40,158 nt of DNA. Source: Patescibacteria group bacterium (GTDB lineage Bacteria > Patescibacteriota > Minisyncoccia > Moranbacterales > GWC2-37-73). Under the pieces are notes generated by a model. The model saw only the letters and a list, made by a program, of their open reading frames with translations, was not told the origin of the DNA and ran no database searches. Shown one piece after another: positions 6,703-39,246 of this stretch (position 1 is its first letter; the number at the start of each line of letters is the position of its first letter). The stretch covers positions 1 to 40,158 of the forward strand of contig DASVYU010000021.1 of the NCBI GenBank assembly GCA_036391995.1. The letters run 5' to 3'. The translations under genes and the position numbers were made by a program.

Positions 6703-7262
6703 TATATGAAGATATTTTCAATGTTGTTTCTGTCACGTTCCCACATTTTGGGATTTGTCTGGATGTATTCGCGGATTTTATTTAACGATTCATCATTACG
6801 GATAATGTGGTCGTAGAAACGTGGTTGCCAGGAGAAATATGTATTGTGCATGGTAGCAAATTTTTTAACGCCCACCTTGAATCCTCTAATAACGGACGCC
6901 AGATTTTCTGATTGTGGTCCAAATTTATTACCATTCACGTGTAGAGACGCAAAATTTTGCGTCTCTACATTTAAATGATTGATGCCATTCCAATTAATTT
7001 TTATAATTCCATGCATGTGGTTTGGCATGATGACAAATTCATCCAAATTTATAAATGGAAAATGGTTTGGAATTTTTTTCCAATATTCTTCTGCAATCTT
7101 TCCAATTTCCGATAGAATAATTTTTCCATCAACAATATCACCGAAAAAATGTTCGCGATCACGCGTACAAATTGTGATGAAATACATTCCATCTTGTGAA
7201 TAATTATATCCTGCCAATCTTGAAGATTTTATTGCGTATTTGTTTTTGAATTTATCATGCAT
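6702..7262 (-). mobile_element. REP-associated tyrosine transposase (RAYT), IS200/IS605-type Y1 HUH transposase
   Basis: HUH motif (MPNHMHGII) and a catalytic Tyr region (WQPRFYDHIIRNDESLNKIREYIQTNP). The N-terminus is typical of RAYTs (RLAGYNYSQDGMYFITICTRDR). The likely start is the ATG at 7262; the ORF tool extended it to 7301. Flanked by REP-like palindromes. Confidence 0.75.
6941..6970. repeat. REP-like 30-bp perfect palindrome, copy A, lying in-frame inside the RAYT CDS
   Basis: tgtagagacgcaaaattttgcgtctctaca, preceded by attcacgtg. It encodes NVETQNFASLHV within the transposase. Confidence 0.8.
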
Positions 7263-7336: not shown

Positions 7337-7378
7337 TTCACGTGTGACAGGTAGAGACGCAAAATTTTGCGTCTCTAC
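7337..7378. repeat. REP-like palindrome, copy B, with the same attcacgtg leader
   Basis: attcacgtgtgacag-gtagagacgcaaaattttgcgtctctac. It lies 6 bp from the efp stop codon and could double as the efp terminator hairpin. Confidence 0.8.
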
Positions 7379-7383
7379 AATTA

Positions 7384-7941: not shown

Positions 7942-8042
7942 AGTACTTTTATGTTATGCTAATCCACGAATTTAACACTAATCTGCGAATTACGAATTCG
8001 CAATTAGTGGATTGGCATTTATTTGCGGATTAGTATCTTTGC
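7942..8042. promoter_or_regulatory. Paralogous dyad-symmetric intergenic element E1, upstream of efp
   Basis: Shares a core with 8250-8370 and 8854-8971: atgctaatcNacgaatNNaacactaatctNcgaatt ... aattcgcaNttNgNggattggcatttattNgNggattag. It ends 10-25 nt before the start codon and carries no SD. Confidence 0.6.
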
Positions 8043-8249
8043 TTATTTAACTACAAAAGGTACCAAAGCCATCACGCGAGCGCGCTTGATAGCTTGGGAA
8101 AGCGTTCTTTGGTGCTTCGTGCAGATGCCATGGCGCTTTGGAGGATAGATTTTTCCTTGGCTGTTCATGAAGCGGCGGATGAGGTAAGCATCCTTGTAGT
8201 CGATTTTGTCCATCTTCTGATCACAGAAGTAACAAGTCTTTTTTTCCAT
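8043..8249 (-). CDS. rpsR: 30S ribosomal protein S18
   Basis: The translation (MEKKTCYFCDQKMDKIDYKDAYLIRRFMNSQGKIYPPKRHGICTKHQRTLSQAIKRARVMALVPF) is a full-length S18. Confidence 0.9.
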   Translation of the reverse strand: MEKKTCYFCDQKMDKIDYKDAYLIRRFMNSQGKIYPPKRHGICTKHQRTLSQAIKRARVMALVPFVVK

Positions 8250-8370
8250 AATTCAATGTGATGCTAATCAACGAATGGAACACTAATCTACGAATTGCGA
8301 ATGGATTTCAACAGAATTTATTCGCGATTTGTGGATTGGCATTTATTTGTGGATTCGCATCGTTTATTAT
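8250..8370. promoter_or_regulatory. Paralogous intergenic element E2, upstream of rpsR
   Basis: Same architecture as E1 and E3: two direct ctaatcNacgaat half-sites plus an inverted pair ggattgg/ggattcgca. Confidence 0.6.
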
Positions 8371-8853
8371 TTAAAACGGTACATCCTCGATTCTTACTTC
8401 GTCGGATTCCTCATCCAGATTGATGGTCGGAATCTCTTCTGCTGCTGGAGCTGCAGGTTTGCTAGCAGGCGCTGGAGTCGAGGCTTGTGGGGCAAGGCGA
8501 TTGTAGCTTCCGCTTCCCGCGCCGCTTGGGCGGCTTCCCATTTGCATATTCTCGGCAATTATTTCCGTAGTCCTTCTTTCCACTCCATCTTTGCCAGTGT
8601 AGGCACGTGTCTCTAGGCGTCCTTCGAAATAAGCCTCCTGACCTTTAGTGAGGTATTGGCCGGCTATTTCAGCTAGGCGTCCCCAGATTACGATGTTGTG
8701 GAACTCAGTCTTTTCCTGCTTCTGACCGCTCTTGTCCATCCAGGTGCGTCCGGTGGCTAAACCGACGGTCGCTACCGTCTGTCCTGAAGGAGTGGTGCGG
8801 AGTTCGACGTCACGCGTGAGGCGTCCGATGAGTTGGACTTTGTTCAAATTCAT
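8371..8853 (-). CDS. ssb: Single-stranded DNA-binding protein
   Basis: OB-fold N-domain (MNLNKVQLIGRLTRDVELRTTPSGQTVATVGLATGRTW), a Gly/Pro/Ala-rich linker and an acidic tail ending DEESDEVRIEDVPF. Confidence 0.9.
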   Translation of the reverse strand: MNLNKVQLIGRLTRDVELRTTPSGQTVATVGLATGRTWMDKSGQKQEKTEFHNIVIWGRLAEIAGQYLTKGQEAYFEGRLETRAYTGKDGVERRTTEIIAENMQMGSRPSGAGSGSYNRLAPQASTPAPASKPAAPAAEEIPTINLDEESDEVRIEDVPF

Positions 8854-8971
8854 AGAATTTGTGTGATGCTAATCTACGAATGCAACACTAATCTACGAAT
8901 TGCGAATGGATTCAAGTTTGTTTTATTCGCAATTTGCGGATTGGCATTTATTGGCGGATTAGCATATTTAA
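8854..8971. promoter_or_regulatory. Paralogous intergenic element E3, upstream of ssb
   Basis: gatgctaatctacgaatgcaacactaatctacgaattgcgaatgg ... attcgcaatttgcggattggcatttattggcggattagcata. Confidence 0.6.
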
Positions 8972-9577
8972 TTAGATGTTGAGCAATTCGTCCAGCTGCT
9001 TGTCGATGTCCTTGGACTCGGCTTCTTTCTTGCTCTTTTTTGGAGCTTCTTTCACCTCTTCAACTTTGGTTTCCTCGACTTTTTCTTCTTTGACTTCTTC
9101 CTTAATTTCAGCTATAGGCTTAACTTCCTCTTTGACTGCTTCCTTGGCTTCTGGCTTTGGGGCAGCTTTCTTTTCTGGGCGCTGAGCTTTGACTGGAGCT
9201 TGCTTGGCATTTCCGAGCTCTTGCTCTTTGCGGCGCTGCTTGGCTCCGAGATCTGGCAGATCTTCAGTCTTCACGATCAGGAAGCGGAGCACATCATTGT
9301 TGAGGTTCAGTTTGTTGGTGATGGCTTGGATGCCGAATTCTTTCTCAGCATTCTTTTCGTCAGCCCAATATTCGACCTCAGGAAGTTCGAAACGGCGGGT
9401 GATGTAGGTTCCGCGATTCTGGTGCTTGATTTCATAGGCAAGCTTCCTTTTTTCAACAATCTCTTCTTCGAGTATTGTTGCTCCTTCTTGAGTGAGCATG
9501 GCGCTCACGCTATTGCGGATCGCGTCGAGATTGGCCTCTTGGCGTTCTCCGACGAGATAGAACAGTTCGTACTGCAT
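8972..9577 (-). CDS. rpsF: 30S ribosomal protein S6 with a long K/E/A-rich C-terminal extension
   Basis: The S6 core begins at MQYELFYLVGERQ (ATG at 9577; the ORF tool start at 9592 adds MYNKI). A low-complexity KEEVKEE tail of about 90 aa follows. Confidence 0.85.
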   Translation of the reverse strand: MQYELFYLVGERQEANLDAIRNSVSAMLTQEGATILEEEIVEKRKLAYEIKHQNRGTYITRRFELPEVEYWADEKNAEKEFGIQAITNKLNLNNDVLRFLIVKTEDLPDLGAKQRRKEQELGNAKQAPVKAQRPEKKAAPKPEAKEAVKEEVKPIAEIKEEVKEEKVEETKVEEVKEAPKKSKKEAESKDIDKQLDELLNI

Positions 9578-9598: not shown

Positions 9599-9660
9599 TT
9601 AACGGGTTAACGGGTTAACGCGTTAGGGATTCCAACTCGTGAACTCGTGAACTCGTGAAC
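9599..9660. promoter_or_regulatory. Upstream module, left copy: 3x CCGTTAAC-type tandem octamers and 3x CTCGTGAA tandem octamers; reads toward rpsF
   Basis: ttaacgggttaacgggttaacgcgtta ... aactcgtgaactcgtgaactcgtgaa. The reverse complement is present at 16120-16182. The distance from the GTTAAC repeats to the rpsF ATG is 21 nt. Confidence 0.6.
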
Positions 9661-9735
9661 TGTTGAATAAATAAACCCTCCAATAAAGAAAGCCGCGCCT
9701 TTTGGAGGATTCTTCCGACTTATCCTTTTGTTAAG

Positions 9736-10019: not shown

Positions 10020-11981
10020 CGACAAGAAAAGGAGAGTAAGATGAAAGAAATGATTCCGCATTTGCCCTCATGGATCCCGTACCTGCTGTTTCTTCTGCCC
10101 GTTGCCTTCTGCATCGTCTTCTACCGTCTCGTGATCCGGATCGGCGGAGTGGTCATCATTCCGGAAGATTCCATAGGGATCGTGAACAAGAAGTTTGTGC
10201 TCTGGGGGACAAACAAGAACTTGCCCGACGGCAAGATCATCGCCCTCAATGGCGAGGCTGGCTGGCAGGCCGACGCGCTTGCTCCCGGTGTGCATTACCG
10301 GAAGTGGCCATGGCAGTACGAGATCAAGATTGAGAAGATGTTCGTCGTGCCGGCTGGTAATATCGCTACTGTGTATGCCAGAGACGGCGTCGCGATCGAG
10401 GGAGGCCGAGTTCTCGGCAGGAAGGTTAACTGCGACACATTCCAGGATGCCAGGAAGTTTCTGGTAAACGGAGGGGAGCGCGGTCAGCAGATCGCCTTCA
10501 TTCCCCAGGGAACATACCGTATCAACACCGCTCTGTTTGAAGTAAAGACGGAAAAGGTCTACGAAGTTCCGAGCGGGAAAGTCGGCGTTATCACGACCAA
10601 GGATGGCAAAGAACTGCCCAAGGACGAGATCGCCGGTGAGAAAGTAGATGGGCACGATTCCTACCAGAACGGCCAGGCTTTTATGGACAATGGCGGCTGG
10701 AAAGGGCGTCAGGCGCAGGTCATTCTTGCCGGACGGTATTTTATCAACCCGTTCTTTGCCGAAGTGGAACTGGTCGACATGACGGAGGTTCAGATCGCGC
10801 ATGTAGGCGTCGTCATCCAGCTCTACGGCAAGGCTGGTACCGATGTTTCCGGTGATGATTTCCAGCATGCCAGCCTGGTTGGACAGGGAGAGAAGGGCGT
10901 CTGGAGGGACCCACTTGACCCTGGTCTCTATGCGATCAACCCCTGTACCCACAAGGTTGTCCAGGTGCCCACGCAAAACATCGTCCTTAACTGGGCCGAT
11001 GATACCTTTGAATCGCACAGGTATGACGAAAAACTGAGCTCGATCACTGTCCGTTCCATGGACGGTTTCAGCTTCACGCTGAACGTCAGCCAGATCATCC
11101 ACATTTCCCGTAACTATGCTTCCTACGTGATTGCGCAGTTCGGCAGCGTGGAGAGTCTGGTCAACAACGTGTTGTCGCCGCTGATCGGAAACTACTTTCG
11201 AAACAGTGCGCAGAACAGCAATGTGATCTCTTTCCTGAGCGAGCGCAACCAGCGCCAGGATCAGGCCAAGGACAAGATCCAGGAAGTTTTGACCAAGCAT
11301 CATGTCACTTCGGTCGACACGCTGATTGGCGACATTAATCCGCCGGAAGAACTGCTCGAACCGCTCAAACAGAAACAGATCGCCGAGCAGCAGAAGCTCA
11401 CCTTCGCTGTCCAGCAGGAAGCTCAGGTGGAACGGCAAAAACTGGAACAATCTAGAGCCATGGCTGAAACCCAGGCGAGCGTCGTTTCTTCGGAGCGCCA
11501 GGTGGCGATCAAAAAGTTCGGTGCTGAAGCTGTCCAGGAAGAAGCCAAGGGTACGGCCGGCGCCAAGACGATCAACGCCAAGGCGGACGCTGAGGTGCTG
11601 AAAGTCGTCGGTATGGCCGAGGCTGAGAAAATCAAGGCTGTCGGTGGTGCCGAAGCGGATGTTATCAAGCAGAAGATTGATTCCATGGAAGCCGGTAACT
11701 ATGCCCTGGTTCTCGTGGCGGAACATCTGGCTAAAGCTGGGGTGCCCTTGGTACCGCAGATCACGGCTGGTGGAAGTGGTGGTGCTGAAGGCGGGCTGGT
11801 CAATGTCCTCCTCGGAACGCTGCTTCACGACAACCTGAAAAAGGCGGCTGTAACACCAGCTGCGGCTCCGCAGGCTGCCCATCTCGAAGCCGTAGCAGCT
11901 GCTGAACCGGCTGCAGCACCCGCTGCCTCGGCGTCCGAAGAGAGGAATGAGCCGGCTGCAGGCGAATCTGTCGAGGAATAA
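10020..11981 (+). CDS. Flotillin-like SPFH protein (YqiK/FloT family), in a high-GC island
   Basis: N-terminal TM (IPYLLFLLPVAFCIVFY), an SPFH core, and a flotillin-type C-terminal AEAE region (VVGMAEAEKIKAVGGAEADVIKQKIDSMEAGNYALVLVAEHLAKAGVPLVPQI). Strong SD (aaaaggagag) before ATG 10020. Local GC about 57%. The ORF tool start at 10002 is 6 codons longer. Confidence 0.75.
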   Translation, partial: RQEKESKMKEMIPHLPSWIPYLLFLLPVAFCIVFYRLVIRIGGVVIIPEDSIGIVNKKFVLWGTNKNLPDGKIIALNGEAGWQADALAPGVHYRKWPWQYEIKIEKMFVVPAGNIATVYARDGVAIEGGRVLGRKVNCDTFQDARKFLVNGGERGQQIAFIPQGTYRINTALFEVKTEKVYEVPSGKVGVITTKDGKELPKDEIAGEKVDGHDSYQNGQAFMDNGGWKGRQAQVILAGRYFINPFFAEVELVDMTEVQIAHVGVVIQLYGKAGTDVSGDDFQHASLVGQGEKGVWRDPLDPGLYAINPCTHKVVQVPTQNIVLNWADDTFESHRYDEKLSSITVRSMDGFSFTLNVSQIIHISRNYASYVIAQFGSVESLVNNVLSPLIGNYFRNSAQNSNVISFLSERNQRQDQAKDKIQEVLTKHHVTSVDTLIGDINPPEELLEPLKQKQIAEQQKLTFAVQQEAQVERQKLEQSRAMAETQASVVSSERQVAIKKFGAEAVQEEAKGTAGAKTINAKADAEVLKVVGMAEAEKIKAVGGAEADVIKQKIDSMEAGNYALVLVAEHLAKAGVPLVPQITAGGSGGAEGGLVNVLLGTLLHDNLKKAAVTPAAAPQAAHLEAVAAAEPAAAPAASASEERNEPAAGESVEE

Positions 11982-13833: not shown

Positions 13834-13987
13834 TGGACAATTCGGTTGTAGAGTTGTAATATATATAACTAAGTCTAAGTTTTAAATTTTAAGTTTGAAA
13901 TGAGTTTTAAATGACTAAATGTTTTAAAACTTAGGCATTTAGGATTGAATTAAAATTTAAAAATTAGCCCTTAAAACTTGTGTAGTC

Positions 13988-15946
13988 ATGGATTTTGAGA
14001 TTTCTAGCAAATATAAGCCTGCCGGCGATCAGCCGCAGGCCATTGAATTGCTCACATACGGGCTGGAACATCAGCAGAAGTTTCAGACGCTTTTGGGTGT
14101 GACTGGATCGGGCAAGACTTTCACGATTGCCAATGTGATCGAGAATGTGCAGAAGCCCACTTTGGTGATCGCGCCCAACAAGACTTTGGCAGCGCAGCTG
14201 GTGCAAGAATTTCGCACCTTCTTTCCCAAGAACGCTGTGGAATATTTCGTGTCCTATTACGACTATTATCAGCCGGAAGCCTACATCGCTTCGACTGATA
14301 CATATATCGAAAAGGAAGTACAGATCAATGATGAGATCGACAGATTGCGTCATGCTGCAACCTCCGCTTTGCTTTCCAGGCGCGATGTGATCATCGTTGC
14401 ATCGGTTTCCTGCATCTACGGCTTGGGAAGCCCGGACTATTATCGTGAAGGGACTGTTTCGGTTGTTGTCGGAGAAAAAGCTTCACGCGAAGCGATCATG
14501 AAAGGCATGATAGATATGCAATATCATCGCAGTGAGGTTCTGGAGCGCGGCAAGTTCCGCGTGATCGGCGACACGATCGAAGTGATCACGCCTGGCAGAG
14601 AGATCGTGTCACGCATCGAATTGGAAGATGGCTTGGTCAAAAGAATCCAAGAATATGATTTCCTGACGGGCGAAAAACTGGGAGATCTCAAGCAGACGCT
14701 TATTTATCCAGCCAAACATTTTGTGGTGCCAGAACCTGTCATGCAGGCAGCACTGGAAGAGATTGAACAGGAAGCCAAGGAAAGAGTGGAATATTTCAAA
14801 GCCAAAGGCAAGCTTCTGGAAGCGGAGAGGATTTCTCGCAGAACCAAACAGGATCTGGAGATGATGCGCGAGATCGGCTATTGCAATGGCGTGGAGAATT
14901 ATTCGCGCTATCTGACAGGCCGTAATGAAGGCGAGCCGCCATACACTTTGGTGGATTATTTCCCGGAAGATTTTCTTTTGGTGATCGATGAATCGCACGT
15001 GACCATCCCGCAGCTTAGTGCCATGTATAACGGGGATCGTGCCAGAAAAGAAGCGCTGATCGAAAACGGCTTCCGTCTGCCGAGCGCTTTTGACAATCGC
15101 CCGCTCAAATTTCCGGAATTCGAATCGCACATCAACCAGCTCATTTTCACTTCGGCTACTCCTGGAGCATATGAGAAGCAGAATTCTTCCCAGATGGTGG
15201 AACAGATCATCCGCCCGACGGGGCTCATCGACCCGGAGCTCATCATCAGGCCAGCCAAGGGGCAGGTCAAAGATGTGCTGCCTGAAATAGAGAAGGTCAT
15301 CGAGAAAAAGGAACGCGTCTTGATCACGACGCTCACTAAGAAGATGGCGGAGGATCTGGCGGAATTCTTGAAGGAACATGGCATCAAATGCGAGTATCTG
15401 CATTCCAGTGTGGACACTCTGGATCGCATCAGGATATTGGAAGGCCTCAGGCGAGGGGATTTCGACGTGCTGGTGGGAGTCAATCTTCTGCGCGAAGGCT
15501 TGGATCTGCCGGAAGTTTCCCTGGTAGCCATTCTGGATGCGGACAAGGAAGGATTCTTGCGCAGCGAGACTTCGCTCATCCAGACCATAGGCCGCGCCGC
15601 GCGTAACGTGAACGGCAGAGTGCTTCTCTATGCTGACAACATGACCGGCTCCATGCAGAGGGCGATCGATGAGACCAATCGCCGCCGGGAGAAGCAGCTG
15701 GCCTACAACAAGAAGCACGGCATCACCCCTAAGACTATCCAGAAGAACATCAAATCCATCGTGGATCACGAGATCAACCCCCAGGTACCGACTGATTTTT
15801 CACAAGTGGAATCCCTAGAGGACATTGCTGGCTACATCAAACAGAAAGAGAAAGAGATGAAAGACGCGGCCCGTGCCCTGGAGTTCGAGAAAGCGGCTCT
15901 TATCCGCGATGAGATTTCCCAGCTCAGGAAATTGCAAATAAAATAG
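13988..15946 (+). CDS. uvrB: Excinuclease ABC subunit B
   Basis: Helicase motifs (GVTGSGKTF; DESH), a beta-hairpin region and a C-terminal UVR domain ([18 protein letters not shown]). Confidence 0.95.
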
Positions 15947-16051: not shown

Positions 16052-16119
16052 TTGCGTACATTTATAATGCCTAGTAAAATACAAGAGACTCAAGGTCTCC
16101 TTTGTAGTTGGTTGAAAAG

Positions 16120-16182
16120 TTCACGAGTTCACGAGTTAGCGGGTTTATTTATCCAACGCGTTAACCCGTTAACCCGTTAACT
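16120..16182. promoter_or_regulatory. Upstream module, right copy: 2x TTCACGAG and 3x GTTAACCC-type octamers; reads toward the DsbA-like gene
   Basis: ttcacgagttcacgag ... aacgcgttaacccgttaacccgttaac is the reverse complement of 9599-9660. It sits 18 nt before ATG 16201, the same geometry as at rpsF. Confidence 0.6.
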
Positions 16183-16200: not shown

Positions 16201-17268
16201 ATGGAAAACGAAGACAAAAAGGCAGAAGGGAAAGTTGAGGAGAAAAAAGCAGCATCGACGACATCAGCATCTCCGGCTTGGAGCGACAAGAAGAAAACCT
16301 GCAAAGACAAGCTGTGTGCTTTCTGGGACAAGCATAAGAAAACTGTCTTGGCTGTGCTGGTACTTCTGGTTTTGGTGGGTGGCAGCTTCGCATATAAATA
16401 TTTTCCAAAAAGAACTGACATTGGTCCTGCAGCGGCAAAAACAAAATTGACTGACTTCATTAACAAGAATCTTCTGCAGCCAGGCACGACTGCTGACATA
16501 ACTGAAATCGTGAAAGAAAACGGTCTCTATAAGGTGACGGTCAGCGTGGGATCGCAGAAAATCACCGCTTATTTGACTGAAGATGGCAGCAAGTTCTTTC
16601 CTCAAGTGATTGATCTCGATGCTGCTCCCAAGCAAGACAATCAACAGGCAGCGAATGAAAAAAGCGCACCTGATCAAAAACAGGATGTTCCGGAAGTGAA
16701 ACTTTTCGTGATGAGCTACTGCCCATATGGACTTCAAATGGAAAAAGGATTGTTGCCTGCCATTGAATCTCTTGGTAGCAAGATCAAATTCAGTTTGGAA
16801 TTTGTTGATTACACGCTGCATGGACAGAAGGAAGTTGATGAGAACACTAGACAATACTGTATCCAGAAAACTCAGCCGGCTAAATTGGACAGCTACCTTA
16901 AATGCTTCTGGAAAGATGCTTCCGGCGCGTCTGATGCTTGCATGAAATCTGTTGGCATCAATACTGCCCAGGTTTCCAGCTGCGTAAGCGATACCAATAA
17001 GCAGTTTGCTCTAACAGAGAAAGACTACGGTATCAACAAGGATGACAATGATAAATACGGTGTGCAAGGATCTCCTACGCTTGTGGTCAATGGTACGACT
17101 GTTTCCTCTGGGCGTGATAGCGCTAGCGTGCTGAAAGCTATCTGCAGCGGATTTAATAATGCCCCAAAAGAATGTTCAGCTGCGCTTTCTTCTACTGCGC
17201 CAGCCCCAGGTTTTGATAGCCAGGGAGCAGGCAGCGGATCTGCAAGCTCTGCAGCATCTTGCCACTGA
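16201..17268 (+). CDS. Membrane-anchored DsbA-family thioredoxin-fold protein with a degenerate CPYG active site
   Basis: TM anchor (VLAVLVLLVLVGG). A thioredoxin_4/DsbA-like C-domain with FVMSYCPYG, i.e. a single Cys where CxxC is expected, and a cis-Pro motif VQGSPTLVVNG. Confidence 0.6.
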   Translation: MENEDKKAEGKVEEKKAASTTSASPAWSDKKKTCKDKLCAFWDKHKKTVLAVLVLLVLVGGSFAYKYFPKRTDIGPAAAKTKLTDFINKNLLQPGTTADITEIVKENGLYKVTVSVGSQKITAYLTEDGSKFFPQVIDLDAAPKQDNQQAANEKSAPDQKQDVPEVKLFVMSYCPYGLQMEKGLLPAIESLGSKIKFSLEFVDYTLHGQKEVDENTRQYCIQKTQPAKLDSYLKCFWKDASGASDACMKSVGINTAQVSSCVSDTNKQFALTEKDYGINKDDNDKYGVQGSPTLVVNGTTVSSGRDSASVLKAICSGFNNAPKECSAALSSTAPAPGFDSQGAGSGSASSAASCH

Positions 17269-18029: not shown

Positions 18030-20948
18030 ATGGAAGACAAGATAATAATCCGCGGGGCAAGGGAACATAATTTGAAGAACATAAACCTTGATCTGCCGCG
18101 AGACAAATTCATAGTGTTTACGGGACTTTCAGGGTCGGGAAAATCGACCCTGGCTTTTGATACGATTTTCGCTGAAGGACAGAGGAGATATTTGGAAAGC
18201 CTTTCAAGCTACGCGCGCCAATTCTTGGGGCAGATGGACAAGCCGGATGTGGATCATATCGAAGGGCTTTCGCCGGCTATCTCCATCGACCAGAAATCTA
18301 CCACGCACAACCCGCGCTCGACCGTGGGAACTGTGACGGAAATCCATGATTATCTGCGTCTGCTCTATGCCAAAATCGGCGTTCCGCATTGTCCGGTCTG
18401 CGGACGTGAGATTTCTAAACTATCCACTGATGAAATCGTGGATCGCATTTTGGAGCTGTCTGAAAAACATTCGCAGACAATTGAGATCCTTGCTCCGGTC
18501 GTGCGCGAAAGGAAAGGTGAATATCTGGCGCTTTTGGATGACATGTGGAAAAGAGGATTTTCCGAGGCGACAGTGGATGGCAAACGCATGCAGCTGGAAG
18601 ATTTCAAGGATATGAAACTTGAACGTTACAAGAAACACAGCATCGACATTGTGGTAGACAAATTGACTGTCAGTGAAGATAGCATCACGCGCATATTCGA
18701 AGGCGTGGAAAGATCGCTTCGCATGGCGGAAGGATTGGTGAAAATAAGATGCATCTCCAATGAAGCTAAAAGCCAAAAGCTAGAAGCTAAAAGCCATTCG
18801 AAGTGTTTTGCGGAGCAGATTTTCAATCAGAAACTTTCCTGTCCGATCCATGACATCCAATTTCCGGAATTGGAGCCGCGTCTTTTCTCTTTCAATTCTC
18901 CCTATGGCGCCTGTGAAGCTTGCGAAGGATTGGGACTCAAGAAGGAGATCGATCCGCATCTGATCATGCCTGACATAAACAAGACGATCGCGGAGGGAGG
19001 TTTTGCTCCTTGGAATTTCAAGAAAAACAACTATTATGGCGGCGTGATACTGTCAGCCGCACGCTTTTTCAATGTGCCCGACAATGTGCGCTTGCGTGAT
19101 CTGCCCAAGAAGAAGCTCAATCTAATGCTCTACGGAACCACCGAAGAAGGCATGGAGGCGACAGAGGAAGATGCTGAGGAGATTCCGATCACCATAAGGG
19201 CCAAGACTGGTACTAATTGGAAATTCTACATGGAATGGCACGGCGTGCTTGGTTTCATGCGAGACAGGTATTTTAAGACCGAGTCAGACACAGTGCGTGC
19301 GAACATGGAGAAATATATGTCGCAGAAGCCTTGCAGTGTCTGCAAAGGCTCACGTTATAAGCGCGATGTGCTTTTGGTGACGGTGGGAGAAAAAAACATC
19401 CATGAAGTCTCCACTTTGAGCGTGTCTGATTCCAAGCAATTCTTCGAAGATTTGAAACTGACCAAAAGAGAAACCATGATTGCGGGCAGGATCCTCAAGG
19501 AAATAAACGCGCGCCTGACATTCTTGAACAATGTGGGCTTGGATTATCTCACGCTGCATCGCGCGGCTTATTCTCTTTCAGGTGGTGAAGCACAGCGCAT
19601 CCGTTTGGCTTCGCAGATCGGCTCGCAATTGGTGGGAGTCTTGTATATCCTGGATGAACCATCGATCGGACTGCATGCGCGTGACAACACCAAGCTCATA
19701 GAGACTCTTAGGCAATTGCAGGAAATAGGCAACACTCTGATCGTGATCGAGCATGATGAAGAAATGATGCGGCATGCAGATTGGTTGGTGGACATCGGAC
19801 CAGGCGCCGGCAAGCATGGCGGCGAAATCATTGCACAAGGCAAACCTGAAGATGTTATCGCAAGCAAGAAATCCCTGACGGGCAAATACCTGCGAGGCGA
19901 ATTGGAAATCGAAATTCCCAAGATGCGCCGCGCAGTCAATAAGAAAAAATTCATCACGGTGAGAAATGCCAGTGAGCATAATCTCAAGAATGTGACAGCG
20001 GAATTTCCGCTTAGAGTTTTCACTTGCGTGACAGGTGTTTCCGGCTCGGGAAAATCGACTTTAGTGGAAGACACTTTGTATAAAGCTTTGGCCAACAAAC
20101 TGCACCGCGCTTTGGATGTGCCTGGCAGGCATCAGGAAATCGTGGGTATCGAGAACATCAACAAAGTCATCATGATCGACCAGTCGCCGATCGGACGCAC
20201 GCCGCGCTCGAATCCTGCGACATATACGGGACTTTTCACGCATATCCGCGAACTGTTCGCGCAGACAAAAGATGCCAAACTCCGAGGCTATGGTCCAGGC
20301 AGGTTCTCATTTAACATTGCCGGCGGGCGCTGTGACAACTGTTCCGGAGAAGGATTCTTGAAAATAGAGATGCAATTCATGCCAGACGTCTATCTGCCTT
20401 GTGATGTCTGCTCAGGTAAGAGATATAACAGTGAGACATTGCAAGTGAAATATAAAGGCAAGAATATTTCCGAAGTTCTTGGCATGACTGTTTCGGAAGG
20501 CGCGGAATTCTTCGCAGCTTTTCCTAAGATCGCTGAACCATTGAAAGTTTTGGAAGATGTAGGATTGGGCTATATCGAGCTAGGGCAGAGCGCAACGACT
20601 CTCTCTGGAGGAGAAGCGCAGAGAATCAAGTTGGCAGCGGAACTTTCGCGCCGTGCGACGGGTGACACGCTGTACATTCTGGACGAGCCAACCACGGGCT
20701 TGCATTTCGATGACATTAAAAAACTTTTGGGAGTATTGAATCGTTTGGTGGATGCTGGCAACACAGTGGTTGTCATTGAGCATAATATGGATGTCATCAA
20801 GACTGCAGACTGGATCATAGACATGGGACCGGAAGGTGGAGATGGCGGAGGACGCATCGTGGTAACAGGCTCGCCGGAAGAAGTCATCAAATATCACAAG
20901 GAAAGCTACACGGCGAAATATCTGAGAGAAGTGCTCAAGAAAAAATAG
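18030..20948 (+). CDS. uvrA: Excinuclease ABC subunit A, full-length class I type
   Basis: Two ABC modules ([10 protein letters not shown]; [12 protein letters not shown]), signature LSGGEAQR twice, zinc-finger and insertion domains. Contains an in-frame tandem-repeat insert at 18762-18800. Confidence 0.95.
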
Positions 20949-21856: not shown

Positions 21857-21940
21857 AATCCAATCCTCCTTTGCCTTTTTAAGGCAATCAGTTGTAATAT
21901 TCAGTTGGATAGGTACGACATTATATTATACTCCTTTTTT

Positions 21941-23329
21941 ATGAATTTGTCCAGTATAAAGCAAAAAATAGCTCAGTTGCCTCAGAATCCGGGGGTATAT
22001 TTTTTCTGCGACTCGGCAGGGGCAATCCTCTATATAGGCAAGGCGACGAATTTGAGAAGCCGGGTTTCTTCCTATTTCCGTGGTTTTGGTGCGGGGGAGT
22101 TGAGCTCCCAAATGCAAAAAGGGAGCTCAACTCCCTTTGTGGCTGGAAGAAGTGAGTGGATTGGTTTAATGGTTTCGCAAATTGCAAATATTGATTTTCA
22201 AGAAACAGACAGCGTCTTGGAAGCGCTCATTCTGGAAAGCAACCTGATAAAGAAGCATCAGCCCAAATACAACACGCTGGAAAAGGACGACAAGAGCTTT
22301 GCGTATTTTGTGATTACCAAAGAGGATTTTCCACGCATCTTGATTCTTCGAAAAACTGATATTGATTTTGAAAATCTAGAAGCTAAAAGCTATAAGCTAA
22401 AAGCTATCTTCGGCCCATACACAAGCAAATACCAGATGGAAACGGCGCTCAAAATCATGCGCCGGATCTTTCCGTTCCATGCGCTCAAGCAGAAAACAGA
22501 AAAAGGCTGTTTGGATTTCCAGTTGGGCATGTGTCCTGGTCCATATGAAGGCGCGATCTCCAAAGAGGATTACAAAAAGAATATCCGCGGCATCCGGATG
22601 ATCCTGGAAGGCAAGAAAAAAAGATTAGTGACGACATTGGAAAAAGAGATGCAGATCCTTGCCAAAAAAAACGAATTCGAAAAAGCTGCCGAGATTCGCA
22701 ACAAAATATTCGCACTCAATCATATTATGGATATTGCGCTTATGACTAGAGATTTTGATAATTTAGAATTTCCAATTTCGAATTTCGAATCAAATCAGAA
22801 TGACATAATTTCGAAAAATAAATCATTAGAAATTCATTCAAAATTCAAAATTCAAAATTCAAAATTGTTCAGGATTGAGGCATATGATATTTCAAATATT
22901 TCTGGACAAAATGCAGTGGGCTCAATGGCGGTTTTTGAAAATGGAAAACCTGCTAAATCACAATATCGCAAATTCAAGATAAAAACGATTGAAGGCAGCG
23001 ATGATGTGGGCAGCATGCGAGAGGTCTTGTCACGGCGCTTCCACAATGATTGGCCGATGCCTGATCTTATTCTGCTCGATGGTGGGCAAGGGCATTTGAA
23101 TATGGCAACAAAACTGTTATTGGAAGAAATGGGCTTGGCTTTGAATATCGCAGCTGTTGCCAAAGGTCCCACCCGCAAGAAGTTGGATGTGCGAATCGCT
23201 GGATCTGTGCCACCTTCAGTCAAGTATATTCTGGCGGATCAGAATCTTTTGAAGTCCATCATGGATGAAGCGCATCGTTTCGCGATCACATTCCATCGCA
23301 AGCTCCGCCGCAAAAACGCTTTGCAATGA
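21941..23329 (+). CDS. uvrC: Excinuclease ABC subunit C, compact form lacking the C-terminal HhH domain
   Basis: GIY-YIG (GVYFFCDSAGAILYIGKATNLRSRVSSYF ... EALILESNLIKKHQPKYN), a UVR domain (EFEKAAEIRNKIF) and an RNaseH-like endonuclease domain (RIEAYDISN...). Likely start at ATG 21941. Carries three in-frame inserts (22095-22135, 22372-22404, about 22760-22870). Confidence 0.85.
   Translation: MNLSSIKQKIAQLPQNPGVYFFCDSAGAILYIGKATNLRSRVSSYFRGFGAGELSSQMQKGSSTPFVAGRSEWIGLMVSQIANIDFQETDSVLEALILESNLIKKHQPKYNTLEKDDKSFAYFVITKEDFPRILILRKTDIDFENLEAKSYKLKAIFGPYTSKYQMETALKIMRRIFPFHALKQKTEKGCLDFQLGMCPGPYEGAISKEDYKKNIRGIRMILEGKKKRLVTTLEKEMQILAKKNEFEKAAEIRNKIFALNHIMDIALMTRDFDNLEFPISNFESNQNDIISKNKSLEIHSKFKIQNSKLFRIEAYDISNISGQNAVGSMAVFENGKPAKSQYRKFKIKTIEGSDDVGSMREVLSRRFHNDWPMPDLILLDGGQGHLNMATKLLLEEMGLALNIAAVAKGPTRKKLDVRIAGSVPPSVKYILADQNLLKSIMDEAHRFAITFHRKLRRKNALQ
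22095..22135. repeat. Perfect 15-bp-arm palindrome inserted in-frame in the uvrC GIY-YIG region
   Basis: GGGAGTTGAGCTCCC-aaatgcaaaaa-GGGAGCTCAACTCCC. It encodes extra residues (GELSSQMQKGSSTPF) between SYFRG and the conserved MVSQIANIDF. Confidence 0.8.
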
Positions 23330-26239: not shown

Positions 26240-29017
26240 ATGAAAAAAAAGATAACACTGGAGATTTCCGGAATGCATTGCTCCTCATGTGAGCTGATCA
26301 CTAGGGAAGAATTGGGGGAAATGGAAGGCGTGAGTGAGATAATGATTGATCATCAAAACGGCACTGGAAGCGTCGTGATTGATGATGAAAAAACATGCAG
26401 TGAGCATGTGATTGCAGCAATAAAGAAGGCTGGCTATGAAGCTAAGGTGGTCAAGGAGGAATCTCTTAAGGAAACTACCGACGACATGCACCAGCTCAAA
26501 CAGGCAGTGCTGGGCATGGCCATTGACGTGAAAGAGCTCAAGAATGCCGTGCTTTCTTCCAGCCCGACTCAAACAAAAGTCAGTCCGACTGCTGCAAATG
26601 CGCCGACTACTGGAGATGCGAACAAAAGAGTGAGTTTGTCGCTTATCGGTATGCACTGCGCGTCTTGCGCCAACATTATTGAGCGCCAGCTCAAGAAGAC
26701 TCCGGGAGTTAAACAGGCTAATGTGAATTTTGCGGCTGAAAAGGCTTCCGTGGTTATGGATGAAAATGCGACAGATATCCAGAAATTGATCGATGCTGTT
26801 TCGCGTGCGGGATATAAAGCTGAAACGGTCGATGCCAAAGATACGGAATATGAAACAAGAAAGCGTGAAAAAGAAATAGCATCCTATTTCAACAAGTTTA
26901 TCTTCGGATTGGTTTTGAGTCTGCCGATGCTATATTTCATGCTGCTCGATTTCTTCAAATGGCTGCCTGGTGAAAAGACGCTGGCTCCATATGTCGGGGT
27001 GTTCTCATTGCTGCTGACCATTCCGGTGCAGTTTATTATTGGCGCAGGATTTTACAAGGGTGCTTGGGCATCATTCAAAATGAAGACGTTCAATATGGAT
27101 AGCTTGATCGCGATCGGAACATCGACAGCTTTCTTTTACAGTTTGTTCAATTTCGCTGCATATGCTGCCAAGAATGGTTCGCTTATAGGTTTGGATGGAA
27201 TGAAAATTCCCAATCTTTATTTTGAAACGGCAGCATATTTGATCACTTTCGTTGTGTTGGGAAAATGGCTGGAAATACGCACCAAAGGCAAGACATCTGA
27301 CGCGATCAAGAAGCTGATGGGATTGCAGGCCAAGACAGCGCGAGTTATCAGAAATGGACAGACACTGGATGTTGCGGTGGACGATGTTTTGCATGGTGAC
27401 ATCGTGATTGTGCGTCCAGGAGAAAAAGTTCCAGTGGATGGAAAAATTACCAAAGGATCTTCAGCTGTGGATGAATCTATGATTACGGGAGAGAGTATCC
27501 CTGTGGAGAAAAATGTCGGAGATTGTGTCATCGGGGGAACAGTCAATAAGACAGGAAGTTTTGAGTTCGAAGCGACCAAAATCGGAAGCGAAACTGCTTT
27601 GGCACAGATAATTCGCTTGATTGAAGAAGCTCAAGGATCCAAAGCGCCAATACAGAATTTTGCTGACAAAATTTCAGCGTGGTTTGTGCCAGTCGTTATT
27701 GGTTTGGCAATCATTACATTTGTGGTTTGGTATTTTGCTCTTGGTGAGACGCTGACATTTGCGCTTATGGCATTCACTTCGGTGATTGTGATTGCTTGTC
27801 CGTGCGCATTAGGGCTAGCTACTCCGACCTCGCTCATGGTTGGAACTGGCAAGGGCGCTGAATATGGAGTGCTGGTCAAAGGCGGGGAGGCTTTGGAGGC
27901 TGCTTCGCATATTGATGCAGTGGTGTTCGACAAAACCGGAACTCTTACGCATGGAAAACCTGAAGTTACGGATATCTTAGCTTTGAGTGATATGGACGAG
28001 GATGAGATATTGGCAGTTGCTGCCAGCTTGGAAAAGCTTTCAGAGCATCCATTGGCGGAAGCCATCTGCAATTATGCCGAAGAAGAGGATGTTGCGCTGG
28101 AAGAAGTCCACAATTTCAATTCGATCACTGGCCGAGGCGTGCAGGGCGATGTGAGTGGGGTGACATATTATGTTGGAACGCGCAAATTGATGATCGAGAC
28201 CCTTGGCTTGGATGTGAAAAAGATTGAACGCAAAATGGCTCGCTTGGAAGAGCAAGGGAAAACCGCAATGCTCTTGGCAACCAAAGAAGGATTGGTTGGA
28301 ATCATCGCAGTGGCTGACACGGTCAAAGAAACTTCGCGCGAAGCTGTGGAAAAACTCAAGAAAATGGGAATTGAAGTTTGGATGATCACGGGAGACAATA
28401 CTCGTACTGCCAAAGCGATCGCTTCGCAAGTCGGCATAACCAATGTGCTTTCGGAGGTTCTGCCCGAGGATAAAGCTAATGCAGTAAGGGCTTTGCAGGG
28501 AGAAAACATTTCTTCTATAAATGAAAATTGGAAATTGAAAATTGAAAATTTAGGAGCGAAGCGACGAGTGGCTATGGTTGGAGATGGCATCAATGATGCT
28601 CCAGCACTTGCTCAAGCCAATGTTGGCATAGCCATGGGAAGCGGCACGGATGTGGCTATGGAAGCAGGTGACATTGTGATTATGAAAAATGATCTCAACG
28701 ATGTTGTTACCAGCTTCCAATTATCCAAGGAGACAATGGGCAAGATCAAACAGAACATGTTCTTTGCTCTTTTCTACAATGTGATCGGTATTCCGATTGC
28801 AGCTCGCGTTTTCTTCGCATTCGGTTTGGTGCTTAAGCCGGAGTTGGCGGGACTAGCCATGGCCATGAGTTCCATTTCAGTGGTGGGAAATTCCTTGCTG
28901 CTTAAGTTGTTTAAGTCAAACAAGCGCAATTGGATTTCCATGGTGGCGCCGATTGTCATGATTGTTATGTTTACTTTGGGATTCATTATGTTTGCGCGTT
29001 TCAGTTCGCAGATGTAA
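26240..29017 (+). CDS. copA: Copper-translocating P1B-type ATPase
   Basis: Two N-terminal HMA domains (SGMHCSSCE; [10 protein letters not shown]), the CPC motif ([11 protein letters not shown]), DKTGTLT and GDGINDAP. An in-frame AT-rich repeat insert at about 28503-28556 encodes [18 protein letters not shown]. Confidence 0.9.
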
Positions 29018-35471: not shown

Positions 35472-35644
35472 GACTGCAAATAGACTGTCTTTACTTTTCA
35501 GGTTTTTTCTGGTACCATGTGTTATTAGCAAATCATAAATCTGAATTTATAAGTCCTAAGTGTAATAGGTTTAAAAATACGGGCTTTCTCGGGTTTTGAA
35601 TTTATTTAGAAATTAGGATTTAGAAATTAGAAATTTTATTTATT

Positions 35645-38479
35645 ATGCCTCTCAAAAAAGCTGCTTCCAAAAACGACAACGAGATCGTGATAAAAGGTGC
35701 CAGGGTGAATAATCTAAAAAACATCGACGTCAATGTGCCGCGTGACAAATTCGTGGTAATCACAGGCCTTTCAGGGTCGGGAAAATCTTCTTTGGCTTTC
35801 GACACCATTTATGCCGAAGGCAATCGACGCTACATGGAAGGACTTTCCTCGTATGCGCGCAATTTTTTGGATCCTTCCGTGAAGCCGGATGTGGATAAGA
35901 TTGAAAATCTTTCGCCTCCGATCTCCATTGATCAGAAAAGCATCTCACGCTCCCCGCGTTCAACAGTGGGCACGCTGACGGAAGTGTATGACTATCTTCG
36001 CATTCTATATGCCAAGGTGGGAGTGTTGCATTGTCCGAATTGCGGTGCATCCATGCAAAGAAGAAGCAACAAAGAAATTTTGGATGATATTCTGGCTTTG
36101 CCGCATCATACTCAGATTGCAATCCTTGCTAAACCGAAAGAGAACCTGGTTGGAAAGGATCTTTTGAAACATATCCAGCAATTGGGTTATGCACGGGTGC
36201 GTATGGGCGGGCCTGCCTCGACTCGCGAAGACGCATCGTCGACGCGAGGCGGGAAGATGCTGACTGTGGCTGAAGCTTTGATGTTTGAAGAGCAGGAGAT
36301 GAGCCAAGACATCGACATGGTAATCGATCGTGTGATTTTGGATATCAAAAATCCGGACACTGAACGCATGGTGGACTCAATTGAAACAGCTATGAAAGTC
36401 GGTGGCGGCGCCATGAAGATGCTGATCGACAATAGTGAAGAGAGATCGTATAATCAGGACTTCTTCTGTTCTAATTGCGGCGTGAAAATCAAGGAAGTTA
36501 CTCCGCGCCACTTTTCTTTCAATAGTCCCGAAGGAGCGTGCGACAATTGCTCTGGTTTGGGATATACCTTGAAAGTCAACGAAGAGCTTGTGATTCCAAA
36601 CAAGAACCTGTCGCTTCTGGAAGGCGCGATCCAGCCTTGGAGCAAATCCGGAGGCAAGATCAATGGGCAAAGCAGCCAGATCCAGATGCTCAAGGATATT
36701 GCTAAGAAATATAAATTTTCCGTCAGCGTGCCTGTGAAAAAACTTACCAAGCAGCAATTGGACATAGTACTGGATGGCAAGGATGGTTTTGAAGGTGTTA
36801 TTCCTGCTTTGGAAGAAAAATATGCCCAGACCAAATCGGAATATATGCGCACGGAAATCGAGAAATATATGACTGCACATGTGTGCGGCAGCTGCATGGG
36901 CAAACGTCTCAAGAAAGAATTCTTGGCTGTCGAGATCCAGGGCCAAGGCATTGATGATCTGGTAAATATGGGAGTGACCAAGCTCAAGGAATTTTTCGAG
37001 GGCGCTGAAAATTGGCAACAGACTTTACAGGAAAAAGAAATTACGCGGCCAATCGTGCGCGAGATGCTCAGTCGTCTCAGAGCTTTGGAAAACGTGGGCT
37101 TGGAATATCTGAATCTGGGACGTTCTGCTCAGACCATTTCCGGCGGAGAAGCGCAGCGCATCCGTTTGGCTGCCCAATTGAATTCTCAACTCATGGGCAT
37201 CGTGTATGTTTTGGATGAACCGTCTATTGGTTTGCATAATCGCGACACGGAAAAACTCATCAAGACCATGCAATCTTTGCAAGGGGTTGGTAATTCCTTG
37301 GTGGTGGTTGAGCATGATGAAGCTATCATTAAATCGGCAGATTGGATCATCGATATGGGACCCGGTGCAGGTGAGGAAGGCGGCATTGTGGTTTTTGAAG
37401 GAGACTACAAGAAGCTGCTCAAATCCAAGAATCTTACTGCGCAATATATTTCCAGAAAAAAGAAAGTTTCCGACAAAAAATCCTATCGCAAAGGCTCTGG
37501 CCAACATATCGAGATCATCGGCGCAGAGGAACACAATCTTAAGAATGTGGATGTGTCCATTCCGCTGGAAAAATTCGTAGCAATCTGCGGCGTGTCAGGC
37601 TCAGGCAAGTCCACGCTTGTCAAAGACATTCTCTCCAAAGCGCTTTCGCGTCATTTCTATGGCACCAAGGATCTGCCTGGTAAGCACAAGAAGATCAAAG
37701 GTTTTGAACATGTCAAAAAAGTCATTTCCATCAATCAGAATCCGATCGGACGCACGCCGCGCTCCAATGCGGCAACCTACACTGGAGTGTTCTCATATAT
37801 CCGTGATCTTTTTGCGCAGACGGAAGAATCCAAGAATCGTGGCTATACTGCCAGCCGTTTCAGTTTCAATATGAAAGGCGGACGCTGCGAGGTTTGTCAG
37901 GGAGAAGGCTACAAGAAGATCGAGATGCATCTTTTGCCTGACATGTATGTTAAATGTGAAGCATGTGACGGAACGCGTTTTTCCAAGAAGACTTTGGAGA
38001 TTGAATACAAGGGTTACAATATAGCGCAGGTCCTGGATATGGATGTGCGGTTCGCTCTCAGATTCTTTGCGCGCCATCCTTTGATTGCGGAAAAACTCAA
38101 GACCATGGAAGATGTGGGATTGGGATATTTGAAACTGGGGCAAAGCGCAACAAATCTTTCAGGTGGTGAGGCTCAGCGCATCAAGCTGGCCACGGAACTG
38201 GCTAGAAAATCTACAGGCAACACCTTGTATATCTTGGATGAACCGACAGCTGGTCTGCATTTCGATGACATACGCAGATTATTGGTTGTACTCAATGCTT
38301 TGGTAGACAAAGGCAATACGGTTTTGGTGGTGGAGCATAACCTGGATGTTGTGCGTGACGCTGATTGGGTGATTGAGTTGGGACCGGATGGCGGAGACAA
38401 AGGCGGCTATGTCAATTTCGAAGGTACACCGGAAAAGCTCAAGAAGGATAAGGAAAGTTGGACAGCGAAGTATCTGTAG
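35645..38479 (+). CDS. uvrA: Second full-length UvrA paralog
   Basis: [10 protein letters not shown] / [19 protein letters not shown] twice, and the zinc-finger and UvrB-binding-region-length insertions all present (944 aa). It lacks the repeat insert seen in the first uvrA. Confidence 0.9.
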   Translation: MPLKKAASKNDNEIVIKGARVNNLKNIDVNVPRDKFVVITGLSGSGKSSLAFDTIYAEGNRRYMEGLSSYARNFLDPSVKPDVDKIENLSPPISIDQKSISRSPRSTVGTLTEVYDYLRILYAKVGVLHCPNCGASMQRRSNKEILDDILALPHHTQIAILAKPKENLVGKDLLKHIQQLGYARVRMGGPASTREDASSTRGGKMLTVAEALMFEEQEMSQDIDMVIDRVILDIKNPDTERMVDSIETAMKVGGGAMKMLIDNSEERSYNQDFFCSNCGVKIKEVTPRHFSFNSPEGACDNCSGLGYTLKVNEELVIPNKNLSLLEGAIQPWSKSGGKINGQSSQIQMLKDIAKKYKFSVSVPVKKLTKQQLDIVLDGKDGFEGVIPALEEKYAQTKSEYMRTEIEKYMTAHVCGSCMGKRLKKEFLAVEIQGQGIDDLVNMGVTKLKEFFEGAENWQQTLQEKEITRPIVREMLSRLRALENVGLEYLNLGRSAQTISGGEAQRIRLAAQLNSQLMGIVYVLDEPSIGLHNRDTEKLIKTMQSLQGVGNSLVVVEHDEAIIKSADWIIDMGPGAGEEGGIVVFEGDYKKLLKSKNLTAQYISRKKKVSDKKSYRKGSGQHIEIIGAEEHNLKNVDVSIPLEKFVAICGVSGSGKSTLVKDILSKALSRHFYGTKDLPGKHKKIKGFEHVKKVISINQNPIGRTPRSNAATYTGVFSYIRDLFAQTEESKNRGYTASRFSFNMKGGRCEVCQGEGYKKIEMHLLPDMYVKCEACDGTRFSKKTLEIEYKGYNIAQVLDMDVRFALRFFARHPLIAEKLKTMEDVGLGYLKLGQSATNLSGGEAQRIKLATELARKSTGNTLYILDEPTAGLHFDDIRRLLVVLNALVDKGNTVLVVEHNLDVVRDADWVIELGPDGGDKGGYVNFEGTPEKLKKDKESWTAKYL

Positions 38480-38648: not shown

Positions 38649-39107
38649 TCAAAGTAACATAAGTACGATTGCCAATATTGAAAAGATGATGTCGTTTCTG
38701 CCATTTCGTAGATTCCAATCATAACGTTTGTCGCCTTTGGGGTAGGGGTGGACCCAAGCATGGAACTGGAAAAGCTTGTAGAGTAATTTGAAATTAAGTT
38801 TCCAATAAAGCACAGTGAGCAGGTCGGGAAACATGGAAGCAAAAGTTCCAATCAGGATGTTTCTGATGATTAAGATGGTAGGGTGAAAAAGCAGAATATA
38901 TGCACCCACAATGGAAAGACCAGCAACAAGATCGATTGCGACTTTCCACCAAGTGTTGGCAAATGTGGATTTGCGATTGAGATATTCTCCGTGGCGAAAA
39001 CTATCCAAAAAGAAATGTAGTGGCAAAGCAATGAGTATTATTAGCCAAGGGTTGGAAACATGTTTTCCCAAGGCAGCGCCGACCAAGGCATGAGTGGTGA
39101 GGATCAT
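38649..39107 (-). CDS. Membrane protein, possibly a YdjM/DUF457-like membrane-bound metal-dependent hydrolase
   Basis: Starts MILTTHALVGAALG, then 3-4 TM helices. The family assignment is tentative. Confidence 0.4.
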   Translation of the reverse strand: MILTTHALVGAALGKHVSNPWLIILIALPLHFFLDSFRHGEYLNRKSTFANTWWKVAIDLVAGLSIVGAYILLFHPTILIIRNILIGTFASMFPDLLTVLYWKLNFKLLYKLFQFHAWVHPYPKGDKRYDWNLRNGRNDIIFSILAIVLMLL

Positions 39108-39246
39108 AGGGATTAAATTTTCAATTTATAATTTTTAATTTTCAAACAATGTTCAATTTTTCAATGATTCAAATTTCAAACATTTAGAAGTTTGGTCATT
39201 GGAAATTGTTTAGAAATTGAAAATTGAAAATTAGAAATTCATTTTT
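39108..39246. repeat. AT-rich heptamer-repeat divergent intergenic region of the (GAAAATT)n / (AATTTTC)n family
   Basis: The left half is rich in aattttcaa units and the right half in gaaattg/gaaaatt units, making an imperfect large dyad between the divergent YdjM-like gene and rsmI. Similar tagaaatt repeats lie at 35581-35644. Confidence 0.6.

Follow-up and report, generated by a model that had tools for sequence, protein, structure and literature searches.

Among the long simple sequence repeats of prokaryotes, heptanucleotides are reported to predominate, and polymerase slippage has been proposed as their origin (a 2007 survey, as cited in PMC4692102 and PMC4679880). In marine Beggiatoaceae, cyanobacteria and Bacteroidetes, TAACTGA repeats occur in two to six copies and typically precede a start codon directly; the unit contains stops that limit its placement within genes, and its distribution over lineages comes without a known mechanism of spread (PMC4679880). 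Heptamers of the cyanobacterial short tandemly repeated repetitive (STRR) type are reported for Calothrix, as cited in PMC4692102. Within genes, neuO of E. coli K1 carries a coding heptanucleotide repeat of which three units encode seven residues, and which keeps the frame only in multiples of three units (PMC13001214). Rickettsia and other bacteria also have protein genes into which small repeats are fused in frame; the Rickettsia palindromic elements, palindromic sequences of approximately 105–146 nt, lie within coding sequence in this way (Ogata 2000, reviewed in PMC3184786). Here we describe heptanucleotide arrays in the nucleotide-excision repair genes uvrA and uvrC of a Patescibacteria group bacterium. 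They lie on contig DASVYU010000021.1, the whole of which is the 40,158-nt stretch analysed here (the window), and UvrC relatives in genome and metagenome collections place it in Candidatus Moranbacteria (Moraniibacteriota). Their best explanation, which we hold to be probable, is that they are an ancient pair of interrupted AAAAGCT arrays in loops that tolerate them, belonging to a Moranbacteria-wide habit of carrying cassettes of 7-nt (and some 8-nt) units that are shaped by reading frame and stop codons.

The uvrA gene (18030-20948, plus strand) encodes 972 residues with the Pfam domains UvrA_inter and UvrA_DNA-bind and matches solved UvrA structures over its full length. The first array lies on its plus strand at 18762-18797, where gaagctaaaagccaaaagctagaagctaaaagccat stands exactly as quoted in the original prediction; it is an interrupted run of approximately 4.6 units that encodes 12 residues in frame, in the loop joining the UvrB-binding domain and the Zn module. 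The uvrC gene (plus strand, from the ATG at 21941 to 23329) encodes 462 residues with GIY-YIG, UVR and RNase H-like domains (Pfam; identical protein P0001) and hosts three arrays. One of them, at 22371-22407 on the plus strand, is again an interrupted run of AAAAGCT, with approximately 5.1 units, and encodes (N)LEAKSYKLKAI directly before a conserved FGPY. Tandem Repeats Finder (TRF) reports period 7 with unit AAGCTAA in 4.6 copies at 18763-18794, and AAAAGCT in 5.1 copies at 22371-22406 together with a 14-nt unit in 2.6 copies at 22371-22407; matches are 82–84% for both, as for head-to-tail copies of a heptamer. The original prediction had described a repeat unit of 15–17 nt, and this has to be replaced by the 7-nt unit AAAAGCT at both sites. 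Its uvrC sequence is present and in frame, only displaced by 4 nt from the coordinates given for it (22372-22404), the string ctagaagctaaaagctataagctaaaagctat being found at 22376-22407 and encoding LEAKSYKLKAI. Here AAGCTAAAAGCT provides the codons for KLKA in the hairpin before FGPY. The exact 15-mer CTAGAAGCTAAAAGC occurs in the window only at 18780 and 22376, and the uvrA and uvrC sites agree at 18 of 20 positions in a count by eye. No two adjacent units are identical in the uvrA array.

Both arrays are old. In a Vogelbacteria-labelled genome, a UvrC of only 40% identity carries an AAAAGCT array at the corresponding site. Among the 120 best UvrC homologues about 20 have LEAKSYKLKAI(F/Y)GPY, which is found at the DNA level in 11 species (carriers of peptide and DNA are listed as WIN, L001, L003, L081, L089 and L161-168, the L numbers denoting loci), and a metagenome scan added only two further loci of the LEAKSYKLKA clade. 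The uvrA array recurs in the same register and with the same codons in L170 (GCTAAAAGCCAAAAGCTAAAAGCTAAAAGC), L171, L003, L004, L005 and L031, its carriers including species with a UvrA 79–80% identical to that of the window, and KAKS-x-KLKAKS-like loops are present in roughly 25 of 120 UvrA homologues. Both AAAAGCT arrays are therefore ancient and inherited, not recent. The original prediction had them recently seeded into two genes, which the fixation of the uvrC peptide in the whole subclade and the sharing of the uvrA array with six other loci refute; orthologues in distant lineages, which it had named as contrary evidence, do carry the motif, and they count against the recent date only. 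Its other half, one short repeat family populating several genes of the lineage, holds, with arrays in uvrC, uvrA, copA and others. A 21-nt duplication in uvrA specific to the window (GAAGCTAAAAGCCAA / GAAGCTAAAAGCCAT) was also considered and ruled out, as L170 has the same GCTAAAAGCCAAAAGCTAAAAGCTAAAAGC.

The closest relative, L169, whose UvrA is 85% identical, has a short loop without the uvrA array, and the loop that holds the uvrA copy is hypervariable, its arrays being lost or exchanged from one species to another. Units at the UvrA site include AAAAGCT, AAAATCT (L006), AAAGTSR (L001) and GAAAGTT (L008), which are one or two substitutions apart and spread through each array; such homogenised unit variants are the signature of concerted evolution. 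Between L004 and L031 uvrA is 96% identical in DNA while whole UvrC loops are swapped for unrelated cassettes, which suggests cassette exchange or very fast turnover. The two loci (L004 4245-5800, L031 6442-8165) have entirely different inserts at several UvrC loops, including an 18-nt tandem repeat (ESALGG, twice) and peptides derived from palindromes. UvrC and UvrA of the window each cluster with no other protein and come from one contig only, the next UvrC having 71% identity. From species to species the loops differ in length and content, but the AAAAGCT arrays do not change in length.

Both genes hold a common short repeat, in identical reading frame, at sites that the conserved folds can spare, as was first noticed from the letters alone; that the sequences are real, in frame and inserted relative to homologues stands, while the unit and the uvrC coordinates had to be corrected. 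The uvrA array is a 16-residue insertion relative to the solved Bacillus UvrA 2R6F and to UvrA2 of the window, the product of the second uvrA gene (uvrA2, 35645-38479, start codon at 35645), which has a 16-residue gap there and so lacks the array, as had been reported. The UvrA loop varies from 0 to 45 residues between species and two UvrC loops from 0 to 60, and these variable loops are filled with period-7 arrays of differing units or, in some species, with translated palindromic elements. Palindromic inserts of UvrC loops are GC-rich and in frame, and encode peptides such as LDSRLRGNDK and YLPTGQAG (L008 at approximately 10445-10610, L007, L009, L014, L017, L032); hairpin-type repeats thus colonise the UvrC loops that also hold heptamer arrays. 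In an AlphaFold2 model of UvrC (116 homologues; mean predicted local distance difference test score, pLDDT, 80.5), the two downstream uvrC arrays lie in a linker, residues 267-306, of pLDDT <50. For the latter half of the AAAAGCT array (YKLKAIFGPY) the model gives a confident strand (E151-160, pLDDT about 90), and in uvrC this array is now part of the protein and no longer a dispensable loop. A further array, in the Cu-ATPase gene copA (26240-29017, plus strand), sits in an 18-residue insertion relative to solved Cu-ATPases. UvrC itself ends after the RNase H-like domain, without the C-terminal helix-hairpin-helix (Pfam), and its 120 best homologues are 403–587 residues long.

The sharing of a 15-mer is by itself not significant and is expected by chance in the window: dinucleotide shuffles contain a mean of 1.9 exact 15-mer pairs more than 200 nt apart, and 76% of them contain at least one. 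The arrays are another matter. There are 11 period-7 arrays in the window against 0.83 expected, a 13-fold excess, and the maximum across 100 shuffles was 4, so that they are not due to chance; rows of period 8 number 7 against 0.94 expected. This is a trait of the Moranbacteria clade. Its loci (543 kb, 35 species) have 3.79 period-7 arrays per 10 kb against 0.37 in shuffles, and other Patescibacteria (651 kb, 45) have 0.77 against 0.29. With the window included, 583 kb contain 209 non-overlapping arrays, 118 in coding DNA (0.23 per kb) and 91 in the intergenic 13% of the sequence (1.2 per kb), approximately 30 of the intergenic ones ending within 15 nt of a start codon. Among genes, uvrC has 13.2 arrays per 10 kb, uvrA 2.5, copA 2.35 (a single site), uvrA2 0.19 and other genes 0.84. 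The cassettes are therefore densest in intergenic DNA, often near start codons, and otherwise occur in frame in tolerant loops, above all of UvrC and then of UvrA and CopA. No one or few heptamers are favoured, 206 arrays falling into 86 unit classes. AAAAGCT itself is narrowly placed: in 2.0 Mb of fetched DNA, 17 of 18 matches to the array are in the uvrA and uvrC loops, all on the sense strand, and the 18th is intergenic, directly downstream of uvrC in L004. Most of the 18 are orthologous copies of the two sites, and independent AAAAGCT events are few. An artificial KLEAKSYKLKAKS... peptide, used as a query for other families with translated AAAAGCT arrays, returned 462 candidates with one weak match.

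Within genes, the arrays carry the mark of selection by coding. Of the 118 coding arrays, 84 have a consensus unit without stops on the sense strand, as against 30 of 91 intergenic ones. AAAAGCT belongs to the stop-bearing minority: if repeated perfectly, (AAAAGCT)n meets a TAA every 21 nt, whatever the frame. The window departs from the perfect unit at the in-frame TAA codon, as AGC-CAA and AGC-CAT in uvrA and as AGC-TAT in uvrC, and relatives have CAA, CAT, TAT or GAA there, the residues at this position being E, Q, Y, H, N or K. A plausible course is that slipped-strand or template-switch events on 7-nt units create and remodel the arrays; those surviving inside genes would be the ones that keep the frame, changing length in steps divisible by 3 nt (21 nt if whole units are gained or lost), and that are stop-free, with single-base patches exactly at the TAA positions. 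The 15-nt identity between uvrA and uvrC follows from a common unit read in one frame, and an old common origin of one LKAKSYKLKA cassette possibly lies behind it.

How does this compare with the systems described above? The Moranbacteria arrays resemble the long simple sequence repeats of prokaryotes, as far as these are summarised in the citing papers, in that 7-nt units stand head to tail in short arrays, are over-represented in certain lineages and are mostly intergenic; they differ in that many here lie in frame in conserved genes, the copy number of 3–5 is often fixed, many units are A-rich and synonymous sites are conserved. With the TAACTGA and STRR heptamers they share a low copy number, a placement within genes that is restricted by stops in the unit, and related units, as UvrC loops of Moranbacteria hold TCAGTAA and TCAGTCA (peptides SVISNQ and SSVISH). 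One favoured heptamer there contrasts with the many unit classes here, and although the arrays of the lineage are overall denser in intergenic DNA, those of uvrA and uvrC are coding and not leader arrays. The likeness to Rickettsia palindromic elements, as these are portrayed in review, is that one short repeat lies in frame in unrelated conserved genes, at surface sites tolerated by the fold, and that its presence varies among relatives. The cassettes here are 30–37 nt of tandem direct heptamers with no sign of a transposition mechanism found, instead of the palindrome of about 100–150 nt by which the reviewed elements are recognised, and only some sister cassettes adjoin a short hairpin. With neuO they share a 7-nt tandem repeat within coding sequence; neuO has 3–53 perfect units and switches ON and OFF, whereas the uvrA and uvrC arrays are short, interrupted and stable in length. 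The present case unites features of all these systems: its A-rich heptamers are numerous, some stand in leader positions, and others are lodged in frame in the loops of conserved proteins. In a full-text literature search of open-access papers, nothing was found on heptamer arrays of this sort in Patescibacteria.

Several observations sit uneasily with old slippage arrays filtered by frame and stops. The AAAAGCT arrays are invariant in length within clades, for which simple slippage does not account. Where residues are identical, the codon is that of the window in 77% of cases within the uvrC array, against 46% over the remainder of the gene, and CTA, a rare Leu codon (2–10% of Leu codons), makes up 8 of 17 Leu codons in the arrays against 17 of 342 elsewhere. 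When the observed period-7 score is compared with that of the same peptide re-encoded by resampling with each genome's codon usage, P<=0.01 is reached by 8 of 11 uvrC and 6 of 6 uvrA arrays; common ancestry reduces the independence of these arrays, but the rest of the gene is near synonymous saturation. Among control windows 3 of 250 reached this level, and all three were uvrC arrays. In the window the uvrA array scores 22 against 11.2 expected from peptide and codon usage (P=0.0002), and the uvrC array 23 against 11.4 (P<0.0002). The 7-nt periodicity is thus kept at synonymous sites (22373-22408, 18762-18797 and their orthologues) well beyond what peptide conservation and codon usage provide. 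Cassettes identical in sequence and length also recur at different sites, among them (TTGGAAA)x4.3, and uvrA of L004 agrees with uvrC of the window at 29 of 30 nt (manual count), with the same frame, patch and ends. Finally, both the contig and the proteins it encodes occur only once in the databases. Recurring cassettes together with the periodicity of silent sites therefore keep alive two other readings, a copying process and a function at the nucleotide level, and we consider it rather improbable, but worth stating, that the Moranbacteria heptamer cassettes are discrete elements and not passive microsatellites, either a new class of selfish coding insertions of approximately 30 nt or a nucleotide-level signal inside reading frames, the AAAAGCT cassette then being the form common to two excision-repair genes.

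The stronger of these readings, still an unlikely one, is that the uvrA and uvrC arrays are copies of a single cassette of approximately 30 nt (CTA-A/G-AAGCTAAAAGCTATAAGCTAAAAGCT, LKAKSYKLKA), spread long ago as a mobile sequence or by ectopic templating, in the manner of Rickettsia palindromic elements. The 29 of 30 nt just mentioned would fit, as the TAT patch is alike in both; so would GAAGCTAAAAGCCAAAA in uvrC of L166, which is identical to the window's uvrA 17-mer, and the confinement of all but one AAAAGCT match to the sense strand of two loops. The patch position, however, is forced once unit and frame are equal, and most of these matches are orthologous copies of two sites. The sister cassette (TTGGAAA)x4.3 also speaks for copying. 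Its length is fixed at 30 nt, and the 2.0 Mb fetched contain 16 copies, 15 within long open reading frames (ORFs), in both orientations (LFGNWKLEIGN or ISNFQFPISNF) and at no fewer than five different sites; they are found in copA, in another ORF and in three separate UvrC loops. The cassette remains perfect even in species where about half of the flanking codons have changed. Its sites include L004 10037-10066, L031 7151-7180, L164 5781-5810, L019 433-462 and L022 6881-6910, and none of its six frames contains a stop; in some cases a short hairpin, e.g. CTCGCCAAAGGCGAG, stands beside it. Close species also differ in whether the loops are present, as mobility would have it. Against copying, inspection revealed neither terminal inverted repeats nor target-site duplications, nor a transposase associated with the arrays, and the unit repertoire is narrow: by arithmetic from the class counts, two arrays are of a common class with a probability of about 2–3%, so that the approximately 45 pairs in the window lead one to expect about one shared pair. 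A second shared pair does exist in the window, formed by the copA array and the leader array at 39214, which have an exact stretch of 22 nt in common (28530/39212).

It is considerably less probable that (AAAAGCT)n is a conserved DNA or RNA signal in both excision-repair genes, such as an array for a regulator or an RNA-binding protein. Such a signal would explain the synonymous conservation with its retained CTA codon and the confinement of the unit to uvrA and uvrC among the fetched loci, and related heptamer arrays do lie directly upstream of start codons, like the TAACTGA repeats for which a translational role has been proposed (PMC4679880). Yet the uvrA array is lost or replaced in many members of the clade, including the closest relative, and neither uvrB nor uvrA2 has (AAAAGCT)n. 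Equal synonymous conservation is shown by other arrays that are unrelated to repair, a search of the whole window returned no Rfam matches, and promoter-like sites number 12 against 8.3, which is not above chance. An internal promoter spanning the uvrC array, TTGAAA-N17-TATAAG, recurs in relatives and was discarded as a candidate, as it follows from the F-E and Y-K codons and promoter-like sites are expected at 8.3 +/- 2.6.

We give very little credence to a contingency locus, in which gain or loss of one 7-nt unit would shift the frame and reversibly switch nucleotide-excision repair ON and OFF as in neuO. The unit length is indeed not a multiple of 3 and lies inside an ORF whose other frames meet TAA at once, neuO is a precedent (PMC13001214), and uvrC has one perfect array, the ATTCAAA heptamer in 4.4 copies at 22836-22866 (plus strand, in frame in the linker, HSKFKIQNSKL; 100% matches in TRF). 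This is most likely the array of the window that would slip, and a 7-nt change there would truncate UvrC; NSKFKIQNSKL is also found in L004 and L031. The AAAAGCT arrays, by contrast, are interrupted and have no long uninterrupted tract, unlike the 3–53 perfect units of neuO, they do not vary in length among species, purifying selection acts on the uvrC peptide, and where uvrA is split (L030, L035, L058) the break is not at the loop. Equally improbable is a coincidence of two low-complexity loops rich in Lys, Ala and Ser without any repeat process, since the shuffles that so readily yield a shared 15-mer fall far short of the 13-fold excess of period-7 arrays, the periodicity exceeds the expectation from peptide and codon usage, and many assemblies, independent of one another, contain the same arrays.

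The remaining arrays of the window, all detected by TRF, are of the same kind. In the uvrC linker, at 22760-22790 on the plus strand, the heptamer AATTTCS in 4.4 copies encodes NLEFPISNFES; it is a relative of the TTGGAAA family in reverse orientation, and relatives have ISNFQFPISNF cassettes. The array of copA (28522-28550, plus strand) is of TGAAAAT/TTGGAAA type in 4.1 copies, and arrays at this site are also found in L004, L006, L007, L008, L009, L085 and L166, but not in L005 and L089. The others are intergenic: TTAGAAA at 35606-35635 (plus strand) ends 10 nt before the start codon of uvrA2, AAATTGA at 39214-39239 (plus strand) ends approximately 8 nt before an ATG at 39247, and on the minus strand an A/T heptamer array at 39116-39142 stands 9 nt ahead of an ORF of that strand, 38649-39107. 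Upstream of uvrB, which occupies 13988-15946 from its ATG at 13988, there are two weak period-7 arrays rich in A/T (13876-13901 and 13948-13966, plus strand, TRF scores 31). The order uvrA-uvrC-(copA)-uvrA2 is conserved among relatives, and the window also encodes a DsbD/cupredoxin protein, a large secreted protein and an ABC transporter.

Repeats of other kinds are present as well. A 69-nt inverted pair (9599-9667 and 16112-16180, 83% complementary) is built of 8-nt tandem arrays, TTAACGGG in 3.4 and AACTCGTG in 3.5 copies; its copies lie directly upstream of the starts of rpsF (minus strand) and of an ORF at 16201 (plus strand), and from this placement the pair resembles a leader or promoter module common to both. 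A palindrome of 29 nt without mismatches, TGTAGAGACGCAAAATTTTGCGTCTCTACA, which resembles a hairpin of the repetitive extragenic palindromic (REP) type or a terminator, occurs in two copies 382 nt apart (6940-6968 and 7351-7379). Between efp, ssb and rpsF on the minus strand, an intergenic repeat of approximately 100 nt has three copies (7952-8050, 8257-8374 and 8862-8979) that are 78–96% identical. A sigma-70-like site matching at 11 of 12 positions (TGGACA-17-TATAAT) lies on the minus strand at 21925-21953, overlapping the uvrC start, and 27 nt of it recur inverted (93%) at 2712-2738.

In sum, the sharing between uvrA and uvrC is in itself largely ordinary, an old simple sequence repeat in tolerant loops. 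Less ordinary is its background, in which one candidate-phylum lineage has approximately ten times the expected number of heptanucleotide arrays and carries them in frame in DNA-repair and transporter proteins. In practice, such loops inflate the variation in protein length, and Patescibacteria proteins that contain them can be misaligned, wrongly clustered or given misleading domain calls. Should copying or a function at the nucleotide level prove true, the gene-invading repeats already known would be joined by a very small kind, and there would be a tractable case for asking why 7-nt units dominate the long repeats of bacteria.

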